From: a virus
Taxonomy: Duplodnaviria > Caudoviricetes
IMG/VR virus record: IMGVR_UViG_3300020045_001971
Coordinates: 1-36,712 of that record
Direction: 5' to 3' (one strand)
Length of the DNA stretch: 36,712 nt
The notes beneath the pieces are model-generated. The model was given only the letters and a program-made list of their open reading frames with translations. It did not search any database and was not told the DNA's origin. The stretch's first letter is position 1. Each line of letters starts with the position of its first letter. Both the position numbers and the translations under genes were made by a program. Shown here in pieces: positions 2,594 through 35,804 of the stretch.

Positions 2594-3490
2594 ATGAACC
2601 TTATCACGCTGGTCCAACAAATATGTGATGAGCTACTGATTGACCGACCTACATCGGTTGTTGGTTCCTCTGACCAGCAGACAAGGCAGATTCTCGCGCT
2701 GCTCAACCGCCTAGGTACTGATCTAACCCGTCAGTACGATTGGCAGCAGTTGAACAATGAGTACATTGTCACGACTGTGGCAATTAACACCACGGGGACT
2801 CTGACGCAAGGGTCTGCCGTGGTGACTGGTATTCCCGACACGACCGGGATTACCACTCAATTCTCGGCGTTTGGCGATGGAATCACGCCATTCGCTCAGG
2901 TGGTCAGCGTTGACAGCGCCACTCAGGTAACGTTGCAAATGCCTGCCGAAAGCTCGGGGACTGTTGACATTCAGTTCTCCCAAGTCGAATACGACTTGCC
3001 GAGCGACTGGAAGAAGCAAATTCCTCAGACTGAATGGGACCGTTCGAATCGGTGGCCGTTGCTTGGCCCGCGCTCCCCTCAAGACTGGCAGAGTTTCAAG
3101 TCTGGCATTGTCTACGCTGGGCCGCGTGAACGGTTCCGCATTCTGCAAAACACCCTTGCTTTGACGCCTCCACCGCCTAATGGGCTGGTGTTGTCGTTTG
3201 AGTACATCAGCAATGGTTGGGTGCAGGATGTGAACGGTGTGCGCAAGTCGTCCTATACGGCAGACACCGACACGGCGGTTTACGAGGACTCGCTACTTAT
3301 CACTGGCCTAAAAGCTCTGTGGAAGGCTGCAAAGGGGCTTGACGGCACGTTTGACCTGTCTGAGTTCCGCGCCATCCTTGAAGCGAACAAGTCTCAAAAT
3401 CGAAGCGCCCCGGTGCTGACGCTTTCCCCAATGTATGGGACGGTTTTGATCTCTGATCGCCAGATCCCCGATGGTAGCTGGCCCAGCTAA
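2594..3490 (+). CDS. Head-to-tail adaptor / tail tubular protein A-like
   Basis: 298 aa; MNLITLVQQICDEL start, EYDLPSDW motif; position before nozzle. Confidence 0.7.
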   Translation: MNLITLVQQICDELLIDRPTSVVGSSDQQTRQILALLNRLGTDLTRQYDWQQLNNEYIVTTVAINTTGTLTQGSAVVTGIPDTTGITTQFSAFGDGITPFAQVVSVDSATQVTLQMPAESSGTVDIQFSQVEYDLPSDWKKQIPQTEWDRSNRWPLLGPRSPQDWQSFKSGIVYAGPRERFRILQNTLALTPPPPNGLVLSFEYISNGWVQDVNGVRKSSYTADTDTAVYEDSLLITGLKALWKAAKGLDGTFDLSEFRAILEANKSQNRSAPVLTLSPMYGTVLISDRQIPDGSWPS

Positions 3491-12970: not shown

Positions 12971-13449
12971 CCATGCTGAAAACCATCAGCGATACAGCGA
13001 TTGAACCAGCTTTGGACCTACTGCCGTCTAGGATGGACTCGGCAGAGGCAAGGGTCATGTTGTTGGCGATTGGTTTGCAAGAATCTCGGTTTCTGCACCG
13101 TAAGCAGATCAAAGGTCCGGCTCGGGGCTTCTGGCAGTTTGAGCGTGGCGGTGGTGTTGTAGGAGTACTCAACCACGCGTCTACCGCTCATCACGCAAAC
13201 CTGATCTGCCAAGCCCGAGGCGTCGAGCCCATGTCTACCGACGTTTACATGGCGCTTGAACGGGACGATGTTTTGGCGGCGTCGTTTGCGCGTCTTTTGC
13301 TGTGGACGGACCCTTACCCTATCCCGACTGAAAAAGACGCGGCATGGGACTTGTATGAGCGTACATGGCGCCCTGGACGCCCGCATAGGTCTAGTTGGGA
13401 TGCGTTTTTTGAACAAGCACAAGAGTTCGTGATTGGGGGTGATCTATGA
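12967..13449 (+). CDS. Endolysin, lysozyme / lytic transglycosylase-like fold
   Basis: AIGLQES catalytic-Glu motif and ARGFWQFE; ATGA overlap with upstream gene. Confidence 0.8.
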   Translation: MTMLKTISDTAIEPALDLLPSRMDSAEARVMLLAIGLQESRFLHRKQIKGPARGFWQFERGGGVVGVLNHASTAHHANLICQARGVEPMSTDVYMALERDDVLAASFARLLLWTDPYPIPTEKDAAWDLYERTWRPGRPHRSSWDAFFEQAQEFVIGGDL

Positions 13450-14462
13450 ATGGGCTTCTTGGATTCCTCCAATCGGCCAGCAACACAGCAGCCAACACCG
13501 TATCCGGCCCGGTTGACCTGATTGCGGCTGGCCTGCGCAAAGTTGGCGTGCCGGTCCCAGAAGACCCGGTTGCGGGTGCTAACTGGATGAAGCATCACGG
13601 CTTGCTACGTGATGTGCCTGACGGTCCGGCCAAGGTGCTTGGCGAGACTGCGGGCATGTTGACCCCTGCCCTTGCTATGCAATACGCACCTCAGATTGCA
13701 TCGGTAGCCAACAAGGCTATCTCTAATGCAATGGCTCCTACCACTGCAAACAAGGAATTAGGCGCTATTGTGTGGCACGGTTCGCCTCACAAGTTTGACC
13801 GATTTGATTCCAGCAAGATCGGAACGGGTGAAGGTGCGCAGGCTTATGGGCATGGGTTGTATTTGGCTGAATCGCCGGATGTGGCAAAAAGCTATATACC
13901 TAAAACAGCAGATGGTGCGGCTCCAACTCCTGATGGGCTGCGTCAATCTATTCAAACAATGCGAACAAGATTGGCTGATGCTGAAAAAAATGGTGGCTAC
14001 TCTCCAGCCGTTATGGATAGGCTGCGCAAGACCATCGCTGATCTTGAGTCTTCAGACTTGAGCGCCCGCGCTCCGTCTCTCTACAAAGTAGACCTTCCTG
14101 ACGAAGCCATTGCCAAAATGCTGGATTGGGATAAGCCAATGTCAAAGCAAAATGCAGCAGTCAAAAAGGCTTGGCAGGAAAGCAAGAAAATGCTTCCGCC
14201 GAATGCGCTTGATGATCTTGGCGGCGATTTGTCTTTAATGTACGGTCCTAATGTCCGACCTCAAGATTTTCTAAACACATGGGAATCATTGGGGCAACGT
14301 GCTGGTGGTGAGGCTGCTTTGCAAAAAGCAGGCATCCCCGGAATACGTTATCTAGACGCTAACAGTCGTGGCGCAGGATCAGGCACAAGCAACTTTGTCG
14401 TGTTCCCTGGCAATGAAAGTATCTTGAGCATCCTTGAGCGCAACAGTCAAGCGCTGAAATAA
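13446..14462 (+). CDS. ART-PolyVal-like ADP-ribosyltransferase domain protein
   Basis: VWHGSPHKFDRFDSSKIGTGEGAQAYGHGLYLAE..AKSY, LYKVDLP, GIPGIRYLD, NFVVF. Confidence 0.7.
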   Translation: MNGLLGFLQSASNTAANTVSGPVDLIAAGLRKVGVPVPEDPVAGANWMKHHGLLRDVPDGPAKVLGETAGMLTPALAMQYAPQIASVANKAISNAMAPTTANKELGAIVWHGSPHKFDRFDSSKIGTGEGAQAYGHGLYLAESPDVAKSYIPKTADGAAPTPDGLRQSIQTMRTRLADAEKNGGYSPAVMDRLRKTIADLESSDLSARAPSLYKVDLPDEAIAKMLDWDKPMSKQNAAVKKAWQESKKMLPPNALDDLGGDLSLMYGPNVRPQDFLNTWESLGQRAGGEAALQKAGIPGIRYLDANSRGAGSGTSNFVVFPGNESILSILERNSQALK

Positions 14463-18549: not shown

Positions 18550-18812
18550 GCTGCGCTCCCGGTGGCCTTAGCGATGGCGTCTCGGGCTTCTTCAACGCGT
18601 GTCATGCTCAAGCCACGATCAACAATTTCCTGAAGCAACCTGAGCAACTCAGGCGCGGCAGCGATCAATTGAGCGTCTTTTTGTCGGAATGCCTTTGCAA
18701 TCAGCCCACGCTTTGGCGCATGAATTGGGTACTCTGCTTTTGCAAAGTGGCTGGCATAGATGGTGTAGCGTTCAGCTTTCCAATTTCCAGGTGTGTGTTT
18801 TGCTTGCGTCAT
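18546..18812 (-). CDS. Conserved phage protein (HTPGxW / LIAAAPELL family)
   Basis: KHTPGNW..DAQLIAAAPELL..AIAKATG. Confidence 0.8.
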   Translation of the reverse strand: MTQAKHTPGNWKAERYTIYASHFAKAEYPIHAPKRGLIAKAFRQKDAQLIAAAPELLRLLQEIVDRGLSMTRVEEARDAIAKATGSAA

Positions 18813-18886
18813 GCTGACCTCGGAAAAATAGGGCAGTGCGCCACAAAGTGACCCTCTCTACCGCAGTAGGTGCAAATTGGCTTCAT
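18809..18886 (-). CDS. 25-aa CCHC zinc-knuckle micro-protein
   Basis: MKPICTYCGREGHFVAHCPIFPRSA fits CX2CX4HX4C; AGGAG RBS; ATGA overlap with next gene. Confidence 0.75.
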   Translation of the reverse strand: MKPICTYCGREGHFVAHCPIFPRSA

Positions 18887-18957: not shown

Positions 18958-19292
18958 ACACTCTACTTTTCTTTCCAGGCATAGGATGACCCCGAGTGCT
19001 CCCGACTGGCCTTTAGGGTCCCGTCTTGTGAGCATCTCTTAGCCATCTTCTTCTACTTGAAACTACCTTAAAAGAAAAAAGGTCGTTTCCAAAAAAGACT
19101 GCTACTCGCTGAACGCCGTATTCTGTCTATCAGGCACCCATTTCGTGGGCCAGTCGCTGCGTCGGTCTGCATCTGCCTGTTTTTGTGGTCGCTACGGAAC
19201 GCCACGCCGTCGGGGTCATCACTGAAACGGCATCGGTACATGAGTGCGGCCCCGACATTGGCCCATTAGCTAACCCGCTCTGAGGGGTAACA

Positions 19293-19422
19293 AGATTGGT
19301 TAGTAGGTGTGGCCGGTGCTGGTCTCCGGCTTGGTGTCTCTCGTTCTGTTTCAGCGGGCCTAGTGGCACCCAGCGCCGCAATGTGCGCATCAGCCTGCGC
19401 ATTCACACCTACTAACCAATCT
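19293..19422. repeat. Perfect 19-bp inverted repeat enclosing smaller hairpins
   Basis: AGATTGGTTAGTAGGTGTG (19293-19311) and CACACCTACTAACCAATCT (19404-19422). Confidence 0.9.
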
Positions 19423-19433
19423 CATAGCTGCAA

Positions 19434-19597
19434 TAAAAAAACCCTGCTCAGGAGGCTTTGGGCTTTGGTATTGCCGCCTTTAAGTGTGCGCTCGGGGAAA
19501 CGAAACCCAACACACTTATCGACTCTTTCCAAAACCTGCCTGAGCAGGGTCTTCTTCATCGTTTCGCAGCCACAACCGGGTTACCAAGCCGATTGAT
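19434..19597 (-). ncRNA. Structured leader / antisense RNA (c4- or P4 CI-like architecture)
   Basis: 12-bp closing stem 19441-19452 with 19539-19550, then a U-tract; inner 8-bp stem; 5' hairpin; two internal complementary site pairs; G-U pairs favour the minus strand. Confidence 0.65.
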
Positions 19598-19603
19598 GTG
19601 CAT

Positions 19604-19632
19604 ATTCTAGGCGAAAAAAAAGCCCCGGTCAA
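19604..19632 (-). promoter_or_regulatory. Sigma70 promoter
   Basis: TTGACC (19632-19627), 17 nt, TAGAAT (19609-19604). Confidence 0.8.
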
Positions 19633-19639
19633 GGGGCTT
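19613..19639 (-). terminator. Rho-independent terminator with the -35 hexamer in its loop
   Basis: AGCCCC-TTGACC-GGGGCT followed by a T-run, just after the stop at 19645. Confidence 0.8.
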
Positions 19640-19644
19640 GTGTG

Positions 19645-20007
19645 CTAGTGGCTGCGCCTGATCTGCGCCAGCTTTTCGCGTATGTGTGCTGGCATCGGTG
19701 CGCCCTGGTGAGCCTCGATCTGAAGCAATACGGGGTCTTTGTCCGTCGCCTTGACCTCCTTGACTGGCTCAAACTCGGCGCCATCCCATCGCATCTGGTT
19801 GAGGTAGGTTGCGGGCATGGGGATGTATTCCCCATTGTTTTTCTTCCAGTCTGGTGTGGTCGCCATGTACTTGACGTGGGCAATGATGGTTTCAGCCTGC
19901 GTCCAGCAGAGCATTTTTACCCACTTCTGACGGCAAACAGCCTTGCCAGTCTTGCGGATGCTTTTAGGCCAAGCTGTCCAGAAGTCTTCGAAGCCGTGTT
20001 CTTTCAT
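19645..20007 (-). CDS. Stand-alone replication-initiator C-terminal-like domain
   Basis: FEDFWTAWPK..K..YIPMPATYLNQMRW, normally the C-terminus of phage initiators; only 120 aa, no wHTH. Confidence 0.7.
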   Translation of the reverse strand: MKEHGFEDFWTAWPKSIRKTGKAVCRQKWVKMLCWTQAETIIAHVKYMATTPDWKKNNGEYIPMPATYLNQMRWDGAEFEPVKEVKATDKDPVLLQIEAHQGAPMPAHIREKLAQIRRSH

Positions 20008-21952: not shown

Positions 21953-22579
21953 ATGAAAAACATTGCAGCCGCATTTGTTAAAGCGCAAAAGAGTTTTGCC
22001 CCTGCGCTCAAGACCAACACCAATCCGCATTTCAAAAGCCGTTACGTCGGCCTGGATGGGTGTATCGAAGCCGTCATTGACGCTTTGAACACTCAAGGCA
22101 TTGCACTTCTTCAGCCAACCCATGAGTGCGAGTCTGGCGTAATGGTGGAGACTCTATTTGTTCACGAGTCAGGCGAAACCCTGAGCGGTGGCAAGCTGCA
22201 TGTTCCGGCGTCCAAGAACGACCCGCAGGGCTACGGTTCCGCGCTGACCTACGCCCGACGCTACAGCCTAATGGCAGCTTGTGGCATTGCCCCAGAGGAT
22301 GACGATGGAAACGCAGCCAGCCGTGGCAAGCAAGCCCCCAAGATGCAGCATCGGCCCGTTGATGGCGCACAAGTGCCAGAAGATGAAAAGCCGTTCTTGC
22401 AAGACTTGGCAAACGACCTCATCAACGTCATCAAAGAGCAGCGTAAACTGACCGATGGCATGGCAATGCTGCACGCGGCCAACCTAGAAACAGAACAGCG
22501 TGTTTATTTGTGGTCGCTGCTTCCAAGTGACGTTAGAAAGGCAATTAAAGATGCTCCAAAAAATACAGCAGAGGCTTAA
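21953..22579 (+). CDS. erf: ERF-family ssDNA annealing protein
   Basis: NPHFKSRY..HESGE..QGYGSALTYARRYSL..GIAPEDDDGN. Confidence 0.93.
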   Translation: MKNIAAAFVKAQKSFAPALKTNTNPHFKSRYVGLDGCIEAVIDALNTQGIALLQPTHECESGVMVETLFVHESGETLSGGKLHVPASKNDPQGYGSALTYARRYSLMAACGIAPEDDDGNAASRGKQAPKMQHRPVDGAQVPEDEKPFLQDLANDLINVIKEQRKLTDGMAMLHAANLETEQRVYLWSLLPSDVRKAIKDAPKNTAEA

Positions 22580-23054
22580 ATCTCTTTTGTCTTATTGCCC
22601 AGAAACAGGCAATTTTTACTGGGCAGATAAGCCATCGAAGTTTAACCATATAAAGGTTGGTGAAGTAGCTGGGACAATAAGCAAGCATCACGGATACGTT
22701 GTGATTGCTTGTGACAAAAAACTGTATAGAGCACATCGTTTGGCATGGTATTTTTACCATGGAGAATGGCTAAATAAACCATTGGAAATAGATCACATAA
22801 ATGGCATTAGGTCGGACAACAGAATTGGAAATTTAAGAGTTGCTAATAGACAGCAAAACATGCAAAACGAACGCAAAGCTAGAGTAAACAACAAATCTGG
22901 CTTTCTAGGTGTGCATGAGATAAACGGCGTTTATAGAGCAAGAATTTGCGTAGATGGAAAAGAAGTATTCTTAGGTCAATTTAAAACGCCAGAAGAAGCA
23001 TCAAGCAAATATTTAGAAGCAAAACGTAAATATCACAATTTTTCCACAATTTAA
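22551..23054 (+). CDS. HNH-AP2 homing endonuclease
   Basis: YCPETG, AHRLAW, IDHINGIRSDNRIGNLR, KSGFLGV..YRARI..LGQF; AT-rich. Confidence 0.9.
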   Translation: MLQKIQQRLKSLLSYCPETGNFYWADKPSKFNHIKVGEVAGTISKHHGYVVIACDKKLYRAHRLAWYFYHGEWLNKPLEIDHINGIRSDNRIGNLRVANRQQNMQNERKARVNNKSGFLGVHEINGVYRARICVDGKEVFLGQFKTPEEASSKYLEAKRKYHNFSTI

Positions 23055-24451: not shown

Positions 24452-24664
24452 ATGACTAATGCAGAACATCGAGAGAAAAACTTAGCCGCTCATTTGATTG
24501 AGCAGGCTTATTTCAGCGTAAACACCTGGGTAGATCGTGGTTACATTGTCGAAGAAGACCGGGACGCCGCTATCTTGGCCTCGCTGTTGAAGGCTGTGCA
24601 GATTGAGGCAGAACAACACGGTCTGACGATTGATAGGCTATTGCGTGAGATTGGGCAAAACTGA
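24452..24664 (+). CDS. Hypothetical protein (possibly leaderless mRNA)
   Basis: 70 aa from ATG 24452, 6 nt after the putative -10. Confidence 0.6.
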   Translation: MTNAEHREKNLAAHLIEQAYFSVNTWVDRGYIVEEDRDAAILASLLKAVQIEAEQHGLTIDRLLREIGQN

Positions 24665-24665
24665 T

Positions 24666-25175
24666 ATGAAGCAGGTCGACCCCAACAAGGCAGTTGAATT
24701 TCGTGATCAACTTATGTCCCGTTTTTATATTGAGGATGGAAAACTTTTGCGAAAAGTAATTGACGGGAAAGGGTTAAAAGTTGGTACAGAAGCTGGAACT
24801 GTCAACAAAGCAGGATACAGGCAAGTAAAAATAGATCGAAAGCTGTATTACACGCATCGATTGATATTTCTTATGCACTACGGCTTCATGCCAGTAACTG
24901 TTGATCACATCGATGGCAATAAGCAAAACAACAAGCCAGAAAATTTGCGTGCGGCAAGTTATAGACAAAACAATTGCAATACAAAAGTAAGAAAAAATAA
25001 TACTTCTGGCGTCAAAGGTGTTTATTGGTCGTCTACTTTTAATTCTTGGCATGTTCGTGTTTTCAAAAACGGCAAAGCAGTAGTTTCCAAGTATTTCAAA
25101 TCATTCAATGAAGCAAAAGACTTTAGAAATACTGAGGCGGCCAAAGAGTACGGAGAGTTTTCATGCGAACAATAG
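24666..25175 (+). CDS. HNH-AP2 homing endonuclease
   Basis: THRLIF, VDHIDGNKQNNKPENLR, NNTSGVKGVYW; AT-rich. Confidence 0.9.
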   Translation: MKQVDPNKAVEFRDQLMSRFYIEDGKLLRKVIDGKGLKVGTEAGTVNKAGYRQVKIDRKLYYTHRLIFLMHYGFMPVTVDHIDGNKQNNKPENLRAASYRQNNCNTKVRKNNTSGVKGVYWSSTFNSWHVRVFKNGKAVVSKYFKSFNEAKDFRNTEAAKEYGEFSCEQ

Positions 25176-35026: not shown

Positions 35027-35325
35027 TGGCCCGTCAACGCTTTATCCAAGACCCAAAGACCCATAAGCTGATTCCCGCTGAGGAATGGTACGACTCGCAA
35101 GAGCCTGCCGCGCCTTACGTCATTCCCGACATTCAGCCTTATCAATCCATGCAAACGGGCGAGATGATTACGTCCCGCTCTCAGCATCGTGCGCATCTCC
35201 GACAGCATGGGTTGATCGAAATTGGGAATGAGGTGAAAGCGGCAATGACGCAACACCGCCCCAAAGACGACCGGGAAGGCCGACGCCGTGCCATCGCTGA
35301 GGTTTTGTCGGCTAAGGGGTACTGA
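35026..35325 (+). CDS. Conserved phage protein upstream of scaffold
   Basis: 99 aa; PDIQPYQSMQTGEMITSRSQHRAHLRQHGLIEIGNE. Confidence 0.75.
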   Translation: MARQRFIQDPKTHKLIPAEEWYDSQEPAAPYVIPDIQPYQSMQTGEMITSRSQHRAHLRQHGLIEIGNEVKAAMTQHRPKDDREGRRRAIAEVLSAKGY

Positions 35326-35804
35326 TGAATCTTGATCTGTCTATTTTTCTCCAGGTGCTTGATTACAATCAGGAGACTGGTCGTTTTACATGGAAGATAG
35401 CGCCAAGGCCTTGTATCAAGGCAGGAGATCAAGCTGGAACCGTAAACAGCAAAGGCTATAGGCTGATTAAGTTTCAGGGCAAGCACATATTGGCGCACCG
35501 GCTTGCATGGTATTTTGTTCATGGCCGGTTGCCAGTAGATCAGTTAGATCATATTGATTGCAATAGAGACAACAACAGCATAAAAAATCTTAGAGAATGC
35601 AATAATGCGCAGAACGCTCAGAGATCGTCTGTTGGGAAAACAAACAAGACAGGCCATCGCGGTGTTTATCTTGTGTATAAAAGCAAAAGTTACCAAGCGC
35701 GTATTTCTTACAACAACAAGCGCAAAAATCTAGGGTGTTATCAAAGTTTTGATGAGGCCGTAGAAGTGTATGAACTCGCTAGGCAGCTTGTTCATTTTCA
35801 GTAA
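35325..35804 (+). CDS. HNH-AP2 homing endonuclease
   Basis: YNQETGRFTW, AHRLAW, LDHIDCNRDNNSIKNLR, TGHRGVY..YQARI; AT-rich. Confidence 0.9.
   Translation: MNLDLSIFLQVLDYNQETGRFTWKIAPRPCIKAGDQAGTVNSKGYRLIKFQGKHILAHRLAWYFVHGRLPVDQLDHIDCNRDNNSIKNLRECNNAQNAQRSSVGKTNKTGHRGVYLVYKSKSYQARISYNNKRKNLGCYQSFDEAVEVYELARQLVHFQ

Follow-up and report, generated by a model that had tools for sequence, protein, structure and literature searches.

The stretch of DNA that we analysed (the window, 36,712 nt) carries a 121-bp terminal repeat and is therefore a complete, circularly permuted phage genome. Pfam and PHROG scans of its ORFs (59 with Pfam, 30 with PHROGs) identified ERF, SSB, NinG, HNH and terminase genes and no polymerase, primase, helicase, integrase or full initiator, and none of the 59 ORFs encodes an initiator N-terminal domain. 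The 36-kb genome holds three HNH homing-endonuclease genes (22500-23054, 24630-25175 and 35325-35804, plus strand), and between its lysis genes lies a gene (13446-14462, plus strand) whose 338-aa product weakly matches ADP-ribosyltransferases (ART-PolyVal).

On the minus strand, the gene of a 120-aa protein is followed by a gap without a credible gene, as an earlier note on this DNA had observed; the size given there (~680 bp) was too small, the gap measuring ~760 bp (19644-18887) and ending at a 25-codon zinc-knuckle ORF that had been overlooked. This small ORF lies outside the segment that is swapped between relatives (see below) and is kept in a full-initiator relative, and is thus probably no part of the system described here. 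A protein-coding reading of a 90-codon ORF within the gap (19130-19402) was rejected, its frame being broken in several of 18 homologues. The region 18960-19600 folds with a z of -5.6 relative to shuffled sequences, and a sequence check found all motifs of the earlier note at the positions it had given. Comparison with homologues resolved the minus-strand region into four parts, namely a terminator with a promoter, a leader, a passenger hairpin and a core (Table 1). In bacterial genome records, four of the six occurrences of the leader pattern were in betaproteobacterial bins, which are possibly misbinned phage contigs, so that a betaproteobacterial host group is a likely guess only.

Table 1. 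Features of the locus in window coordinates; paired segments are given as 5' and 3' sides on the minus strand.
Feature	Position	Strand	Remarks
Stand-alone initiator C-terminal domain, 120 aa	19645..20007	-	helical bundle (1-79) and flexible tail
Intrinsic terminator of upstream operon	19612..19639	-	overlaps -35 box
Sigma-70 promoter	19604..19632	-	consensus score 10/12, 17-nt spacer; predicted start near 19597
Leader, type 1	19434..19597	-	5' hairpin; long stem 19556-19529/19462-19435 ending in U run
Mobile multi-stem hairpin closed by 19-bp repeat	19293..19422	-	loop-loop complementarity; passenger
Conserved core, type 4, three pseudoknots	18980..19289	-	310 nt; predicted primer/origin RNA
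Hairpin H1	19206..19231	-	19231-19227 with 19210-19206; two-sided changes in 4/5 pairs
Pseudoknot 1	19220-19211 (H1 loop) with 18994-18985	-	two-sided changes in 5/10 pairs
Hairpin H2, invariant	19205-19185	-	comparative structure
Pseudoknot 2	H2 loop 19197-19193 with 19120-19116	-	comparative structure
Helix H3	19179-19175/19135-19131	-	comparative structure
Hairpin H4	19150-19136	-	comparative structure
Pseudoknot 3	19165-19161 with 19006-19002	-	comparative structure
Helix H6	19104-19096 with 19048-19040	-	encloses variable AT-rich loop; two-sided changes in 5/8 pairs
Core 3' end	18980..18994	-	G-run closing pseudoknot 1, then CCTATG (18985-18980); predicted RNA-to-DNA switch region
25-codon CCHC zinc-knuckle ORF	18809..18886	-	just 3' of element; also in full-initiator relative L026
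Swapped segment	18959..19948		flanks 97% and 93% identical, window versus G048 (L026)

A promoter and a predicted attenuator

The promoter proposed earlier was upheld by its consensus score, with a terminator hairpin overlapping it. A sigma-70 promoter lies directly before 77 of 173 non-redundant leaders, against about 2.5-3 expected, and before 109 of them when extended -10 elements are counted. Antisense sigma-70 promoters, sought by consensus scan only, were not enriched (3/173 leaders, 8.6 expected), and the same scan found none in the window's own element. The type 1 leader of the window exposes a loop (19587-19582) complementary to 19470-19465 and is predicted to be an attenuator. The counterpart of this pairing in type-3 leaders covaries: all six pairs there that reached E<=0.05 under a tree-aware null were canonical, three of them within the loop-loop pairing. 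For no leader type did Rfam return a match, be it to the C4 phage antisense RNA or to another family.

The 19-bp inverted repeat closes a passenger hairpin

The perfect 19-bp inverted repeat on which the earlier note had drawn is present, and the window has no other perfect repeat of at least 14 bp within 200 nt (0.6 on average after shuffling), but the role assigned to it did not hold. It closes a separate mobile hairpin that is found in unrelated places (ahead of tRNA genes in the Alcaligenes phage CASP1, in phiPLPE, and upstream of cro) as well as in two full-initiator loci; the hairpin is therefore a passenger that does not belong to the conserved system. In run X1, a close relative has kept the outer stem of this hairpin around a different interior. 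Hairpins of this kind constitute an uncatalogued 110-140-nt RNA with covarying loop-loop complementarity (window 19293-19422, minus strand; L114 5984-6118; L115 46825-46688; L063 2410-2540), which often resides inside tRNA/small-RNA arrays of betaproteobacterial phages, two of them cultured, and has no match in Rfam. The cultured phages, CASP1 and phiPLPE, also contain long non-coding stretches dense in further hairpins (L114 5340-6220 and L115 45994-47453).

A conserved core with three pseudoknots

The core was described by a 50-pair structure in 21 aligned sequences, in which 99.0% of 1043 cells are paired and 20 of the 50 pairs change on both sides, a level of covariation reached in none of 500 shuffles; slid controls were 31-40% paired. 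As the structure was read off the same alignments, and some of the changes in pseudoknot 1 amount to a one-pair indel, we added a tree-aware null, under which seven of the eight pairs at E<=0.05 were canonical, in four helices (four of five in type-1 cores). The conserved RNA fold that had been suspected thus came through both tests of covariation across homologous loci, and we conclude that the structured element is real, while its function is inferred. Among wobbles in the core, G-U outnumbers A-C by 42 to 6, with one G-U invariant, which suggests that the fold belongs to the promoter's strand, and many unpaired bases are invariant.

The individual stems listed in the earlier note fared unequally. 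CAGGCA/TGCCTG was retained, its CAGGC/GCCTG part pairing in 19/19 homologues at five positions; TGGGCCA/TGGCCCA was dropped, since it pairs in only 9-16 of 19 homologues at six of its seven positions, as was GTCGGGG/CCCCGAC, which has no compensatory support in the 19 homologues and competes with the covarying helices. The AT-rich tract has the composition ascribed to it (70-71% AT) but not the conservation, being a variable helix loop that is missing in about half of the homologues, and hence does not qualify as a conserved unwinding element. Conservation of the core stops at CTATG, where an ATG stands in 47 of 52 cases; in 25 of the 52 cores ending so, it is the start codon of an ORF of at least 50 codons. 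No terminator was found at the core 3' end.

Searched against Rfam, the window gave no match at E<=1 apart from a 20-mer outside this region that matched by chance, and core types 1-8 gave none. A first motif scan returned seven matches (2 true, 5 chance) and a second, of viral contigs, returned 60, of which 24 were true; metagenomes yielded 23 core matches. Two known RNA classes were considered and rejected: a group I intron, as its P3-like stem and P7-like GACTG are not conserved, Rfam gives no match and no gene is split, and a retron msr-msd, as the 59 ORFs include no reverse transcriptase and the 19-bp repeat closes a separate hairpin.

A stand-alone initiator domain with a loader-like tail

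The 120-aa protein is, as had been proposed, the C-terminal domain of an initiator only, matching PHROG profiles at positions 176-258 of 288 and 179-257 of 383. Modelling (pLDDT 77) gave a bundle of helices to which a loose tail is attached. The protein has no sequence match in the PDB, Foldseek against the PDB returned nothing at E<=0.001, and the lambda O and DnaT domains were not among the matches listed in a VIA-align fold search; a weak fold likeness was seen to the G39P loader domain of SPP1 (Z 4.6, rmsd 2.6 over 61 residues). The tail of the protein is also seen in 18 of 80 full initiators. Conserved 110-210-aa loader-like ORFs or primases follow none of these 18 but most of the tail-less full initiators (both read by eye), and one of four loader-like ORFs tested matches a PHROG helicase-loader family. 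When the domain was modelled in a complex with the C-terminal part of a Burkholderiaceae DnaB in two copies, the prediction scored 0.02. Taken together, the C-terminal likeness, the weak resemblance to G39P and the distribution of the tail suggest helicase recruitment, and the protein is predicted to be a helicase-recruiting factor.

The cassette occupies the slot of a full initiator

In the close relative G048 (L026), the swapped segment of Table 1 is replaced by a hairpin resembling int-alpA, together with a full initiator of the DUF1376 type. Relatives of the 120-aa protein were gathered from 26 loci and the best 80 of 382, and 105 of these 106 were stand-alone, in a search that favours the stand-alone form. 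A core adjoins 101 of the 105 stand-alone loci (46 of 47 clusters), compared with 99 when the first models were used, the rise following the addition of seeds, one of which came from a previously missed locus. Within the fetched flanks all 101 cores lie on the gene's strand, 96 upstream and 5 downstream of it. Two of the misses are contig ends and a third is G060, a complete genome in which 4.2 kb separate the element from the domain gene; it lies on the opposite strand and has only one tiny ORF behind it.

No core was detected in 80 full-initiator loci (the best 80 of 403; 49 clusters), 57 of which have at least two genes in common with the stand-alone set, nor in 17 whole full-initiator records, 8 of them at least 90% complete. 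The profile models, which were seeded from stand-alone and terminase loci, missed unmodelled cores behind 29 of 115 leaders, and this weakens the count of 0/80, although leaders are also absent there. Co-occurrence with the stand-alone domain, which the earlier note had anticipated, was thus borne out (101/105 against 0/80). Its expectation that replicases would be lacking agrees with the window ORFs and with related genomes, as DnaB_C, DUF1376 and HTH_36 were matched in 0/20 element-bearing records, both positive controls having matched DnaB_C and DUF1376 and neither HTH_36. Every one of ten records fetched whole contains a single core.

Nor are there iterons, the commonest 9-mer occurring twice, versus 3-4 times inside two full initiator genes. 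A lambdoid O/iteron origin was rejected accordingly, since only the C-terminal part matches, 105/106 relatives stand alone and no 9-mer is present more than twice. Perfect DnaA boxes number 11 in 118 non-redundant core zones (10 loci), or 0.222/kb against 0.013/kb in the flanks (17-fold), and 0.3 were obtained in shuffles; the window's own element has none. One core type ends in 2-3 tandem DnaA-box-like nonamers (L451, L486, L506, L509, L516, L527, L531, L539 and L553), and no stand-alone domain was found in the phages that carry it. Two genomes bear the element with no initiator, domain, helicase or primase found, namely G070 (99% complete; 35 of 42 listed ORFs and one more scanned, seven small structural-arm ORFs being left out) and G069 (89%; 13 ORFs scanned).

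The hairpin that accompanies the full initiator resembles the int-alpA motif (RF02996; 35.3 bits, cut-off 35.8). It is a different, 70-nt element that is absent from the window and travels with the initiator gene, standing directly before 29/80 full initiators and 10/105 stand-alone genes (for example L226 4909-4984, L026 4095-4160 and L111 3414-3487), and is possibly an autoregulatory site.

Leaders and cores are freely combined in a mobile cassette

Around the relatives of the 120-aa protein we found several leader types and at least 8 core types, freely combined. A leader-first scan of 120 loci, 88 of which continue into a modelled core, added further core types, and at least 10 interchangeable types are now seen behind the same leaders. 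Among 51 leader-first loci with wide flanks, the stand-alone domain is present at only 15, a terminase at 13 and an initiator N-terminus at one; the other 22 have none of the three. Within a 55-kb lineage, the cassette stands by the terminase gene at 28 of 80 loci (best 80 of 562; 1.5-kb flanks), and of seven long records of this lineage three have it and four do not.

In this 55-kb lineage, cassette and full initiator coexist in G016, G018, G019, G027, G030 and G082; G016, G027 and G030 also have their own helicase, and G016 and G030 a primase as well. The cassette is further accompanied by an O-like initiator in G076, by an initiator and a DnaB-like gene in G077, and by apparent primase/helicase genes in G073 and G075 (the last three genomes read by eye). 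The claimed pairing of the structured element with a truncated initiator therefore describes the stand-alone loci well but is not constant. The cassette is therefore mobile and at times dispensable, as expected of a second or selfish origin and, equally, of a non-replicative RNA. The genes 3' of it vary freely. A fresh promoter follows the core in G076 and G083, which is not general (7/87, 3.7 expected).

In IMG/VR we counted 382 stretches with the stand-alone domain and about 290 with type-3 leaders. Protein clusters of 58-210 aa number 1099, part of them perhaps fragments. Plasmids gave no match to three element-type queries; among GenBank phages, matches were limited to the passenger hairpin, fragments of promoters and a single uncultured podovirus that has the same layout; and a search of bacterial genomes for the domain found none. 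In L050 (about 3380-3470) most of the core is deleted between two short matching words, by a natural deletion or an assembly collapse. Podophages of the portal-scaffold-capsid arrangement (L575, L586, L444 and L469) carry the cassette between the scaffold and capsid genes; behind it come a second promoter and a further untranslated stretch that is conserved.

Discussion

We consider it probable that this promoter-driven cassette, with its triply pseudoknotted core in the slot of the initiator, acts as an RNA-primed origin that is ColE1-like in logic: a predicted RNA fold and a promoter standing where a relative has its initiator suggest that replication likely starts from an RNA primer, without a DNA-binding protein. 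The accounts of RNA II in PMC5043065 and PMC6312765 served as our model for the primer steps of ColE1. A non-coding transcript of about 550-620 nt with its own promoter, predicted for the cassette, and the lack of an origin-binding initiator are common to both systems, and the dedicated promoter that ColE1-type origins place about 550 nt before the switch point is found here as well (19632-19604 to the core end at 18980, the inferred switch point). The ColE1 record NC_001371 and the cassette also share a G-run followed by CCTATG near the 3' end, the hexamer preceding an A-run in ColE1, a likeness that we take as a lead only. ColE1 has a DnaA box 85 nt after CCTATGG, and the cassette family has one in 10 of 118 sister elements. 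No element model matched ColE1 560-1320 at E<=1, and unlike ColE1 the cassette has no RNA I-type antisense promoter (by consensus scan), has three covarying pseudoknots and a terminator-like leader, and is a phage element that in most cases accompanies a headless initiator domain. It is thus ColE1-like in logic and no member of the ColE1 type.

Other known systems touch on the cassette. Lambdoid O with a P- or G39P-type loader occupies the same genomic slot and shares the C-terminal domain family and the loader-like tail; its origin relies on a DNA-binding N-terminal domain and iterons, where the cassette loci have a structured cassette instead. Rfam's Betaproteobacteria-1 (RF02932) is the first 120 nt of a sister core type of roughly 230 nt that stands behind a type-3 leader (83-94 bits in L455, L500, L505 and L517, cut-off 49.4; no match in the window at E<=1). 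Rfam lists it as an sRNA only, and the leader, the 3' half and the link to replication lie outside its model. The ARRPOF, PAGEV and GEBRO motifs (PMC5737381) are structured motifs of 223-349 nt in plasmid regions needed or predicted for replication, and the ARRPOF region replicates without rep; they differ from the cassette in belonging to plasmids of other phyla or classes, and gave no Rfam match to cassette loci. In a literature search that took in few subscription papers we found no description of the element, and prior description of its parts is possible.

The core could instead be a mobile RNA acting in trans, or a ribozyme (self-processing, a decoy or anti-defence), its link to the headless initiator being lineage history. 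A compact multi-pseudoknot fold rich in invariant unpaired bases would suit such an RNA, as would the number of core types that are interchangeable behind the same leaders and the fact that phages with replicases of their own may or may not carry one near terminase, capsid or cro genes. We nonetheless regard it as unlikely, because it leaves unexplained the sharp split between stand-alone and full-initiator loci within one gene pool, the exact swap and the enrichment of DnaA boxes, and because the core has neither a ribozyme match in Rfam nor a 3' terminator.

Leader and core might also be a cis-regulatory RNA for the genes behind them, an attenuator or an antiterminator resembling put of phage HK022. 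The leader is indeed promoter-proximal and terminator-like, nearly all adjoining cores (96/101) precede the domain gene, most often behind cro, pseudoknot 1 closes immediately 5' of the ATG where there is one (47/52), and other lineages place the cassette before virion genes. Regulation of this kind is hard to reconcile with downstream genes that vary freely, with the single tiny ORF behind the element of G060 and with the fresh promoters of G076 and G083, uncommon as these are, and it would leave the initiator-less genomes without an origin; we judge it quite unlikely.

An origin whose fold acts in transcription-exposed single-stranded DNA, with host primase priming after PriA or DnaA loading, appears improbable to us. 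Covariation would look the same for RNA and for single-stranded DNA of the same strand, some cores contain DnaA boxes, and Weinberg et al. raise this possibility for plasmid motifs (PMC5737381); the excess of G-U over A-C wobbles, an invariant G-U among them, and the conserved promoter immediately 5' of the fold argue for RNA. An RNA or site for DNA packaging (pac-linked or a prohead RNA) is very improbable, for although the cassette neighbours the terminase at 28/80 loci of one lineage (best 80 of 562) and precedes small-terminase-like genes in L404, L405 and L408, it is absent at 52/80 loci with near-identical terminases, is about 8 kb away from the window's own terminase gene, and has been swapped for an initiator and no packaging gene.

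Under the RNA-primed origin that we favour, host RNA polymerase would start near 19597, and the terminator-like stem of the leader would let only part of the transcripts pass, the fraction that reads through being set by the loop-loop pairing, which would amount to copy control without an antisense RNA. The read-through RNA would fold co-transcriptionally. Once transcription arrives at the G-run (18994-18985), the C-rich loop already formed (19220-19211) may capture this G-run in the nascent RNA, or the identical sequence of the displaced DNA strand, and so hold an R-loop open. RNase H or release of the polymerase would then leave a 3' end near CCTATG (18985-18980; about 18985-18975) for DNA polymerase I. 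The stand-alone domain may bring host DnaB to the opened strand in trans, via its C-terminal tail; some sister cores, in which DnaA boxes are present, may use host DnaA, and some phages seem to manage without the stand-alone domain.

A bolder proposal, which we hold possible and advance tentatively, is that a widespread class of phages has swapped the DNA-binding half of its initiator for RNA. Interchangeable pseudoknotted RNAs behind swappable kissing-loop attenuators would open the origin and supply the primer, which they might also self-process. Loading of the host helicase would fall to the headless domain or DnaA, recruited directly by the RNA, and the whole would be a ribonucleoprotein initiator that passes from one phage genome to another as a complete mobile origin.

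Many uncultured phages have no recognisable replication start, and the cassette offers one for a large group of them. If true, RNA-primed origins would extend beyond ColE1-type plasmids to a family without shared sequence, and the Betaproteobacteria-1 fragment of Rfam would gain a function. The unit, about 1 kb long, can be tested on a plasmid and is possibly a new betaproteobacterial replicon. Even if the origin reading fails, these phages carry a large, mostly uncatalogued family of multi-pseudoknot RNAs, in which leaders and cores are mixed and matched.
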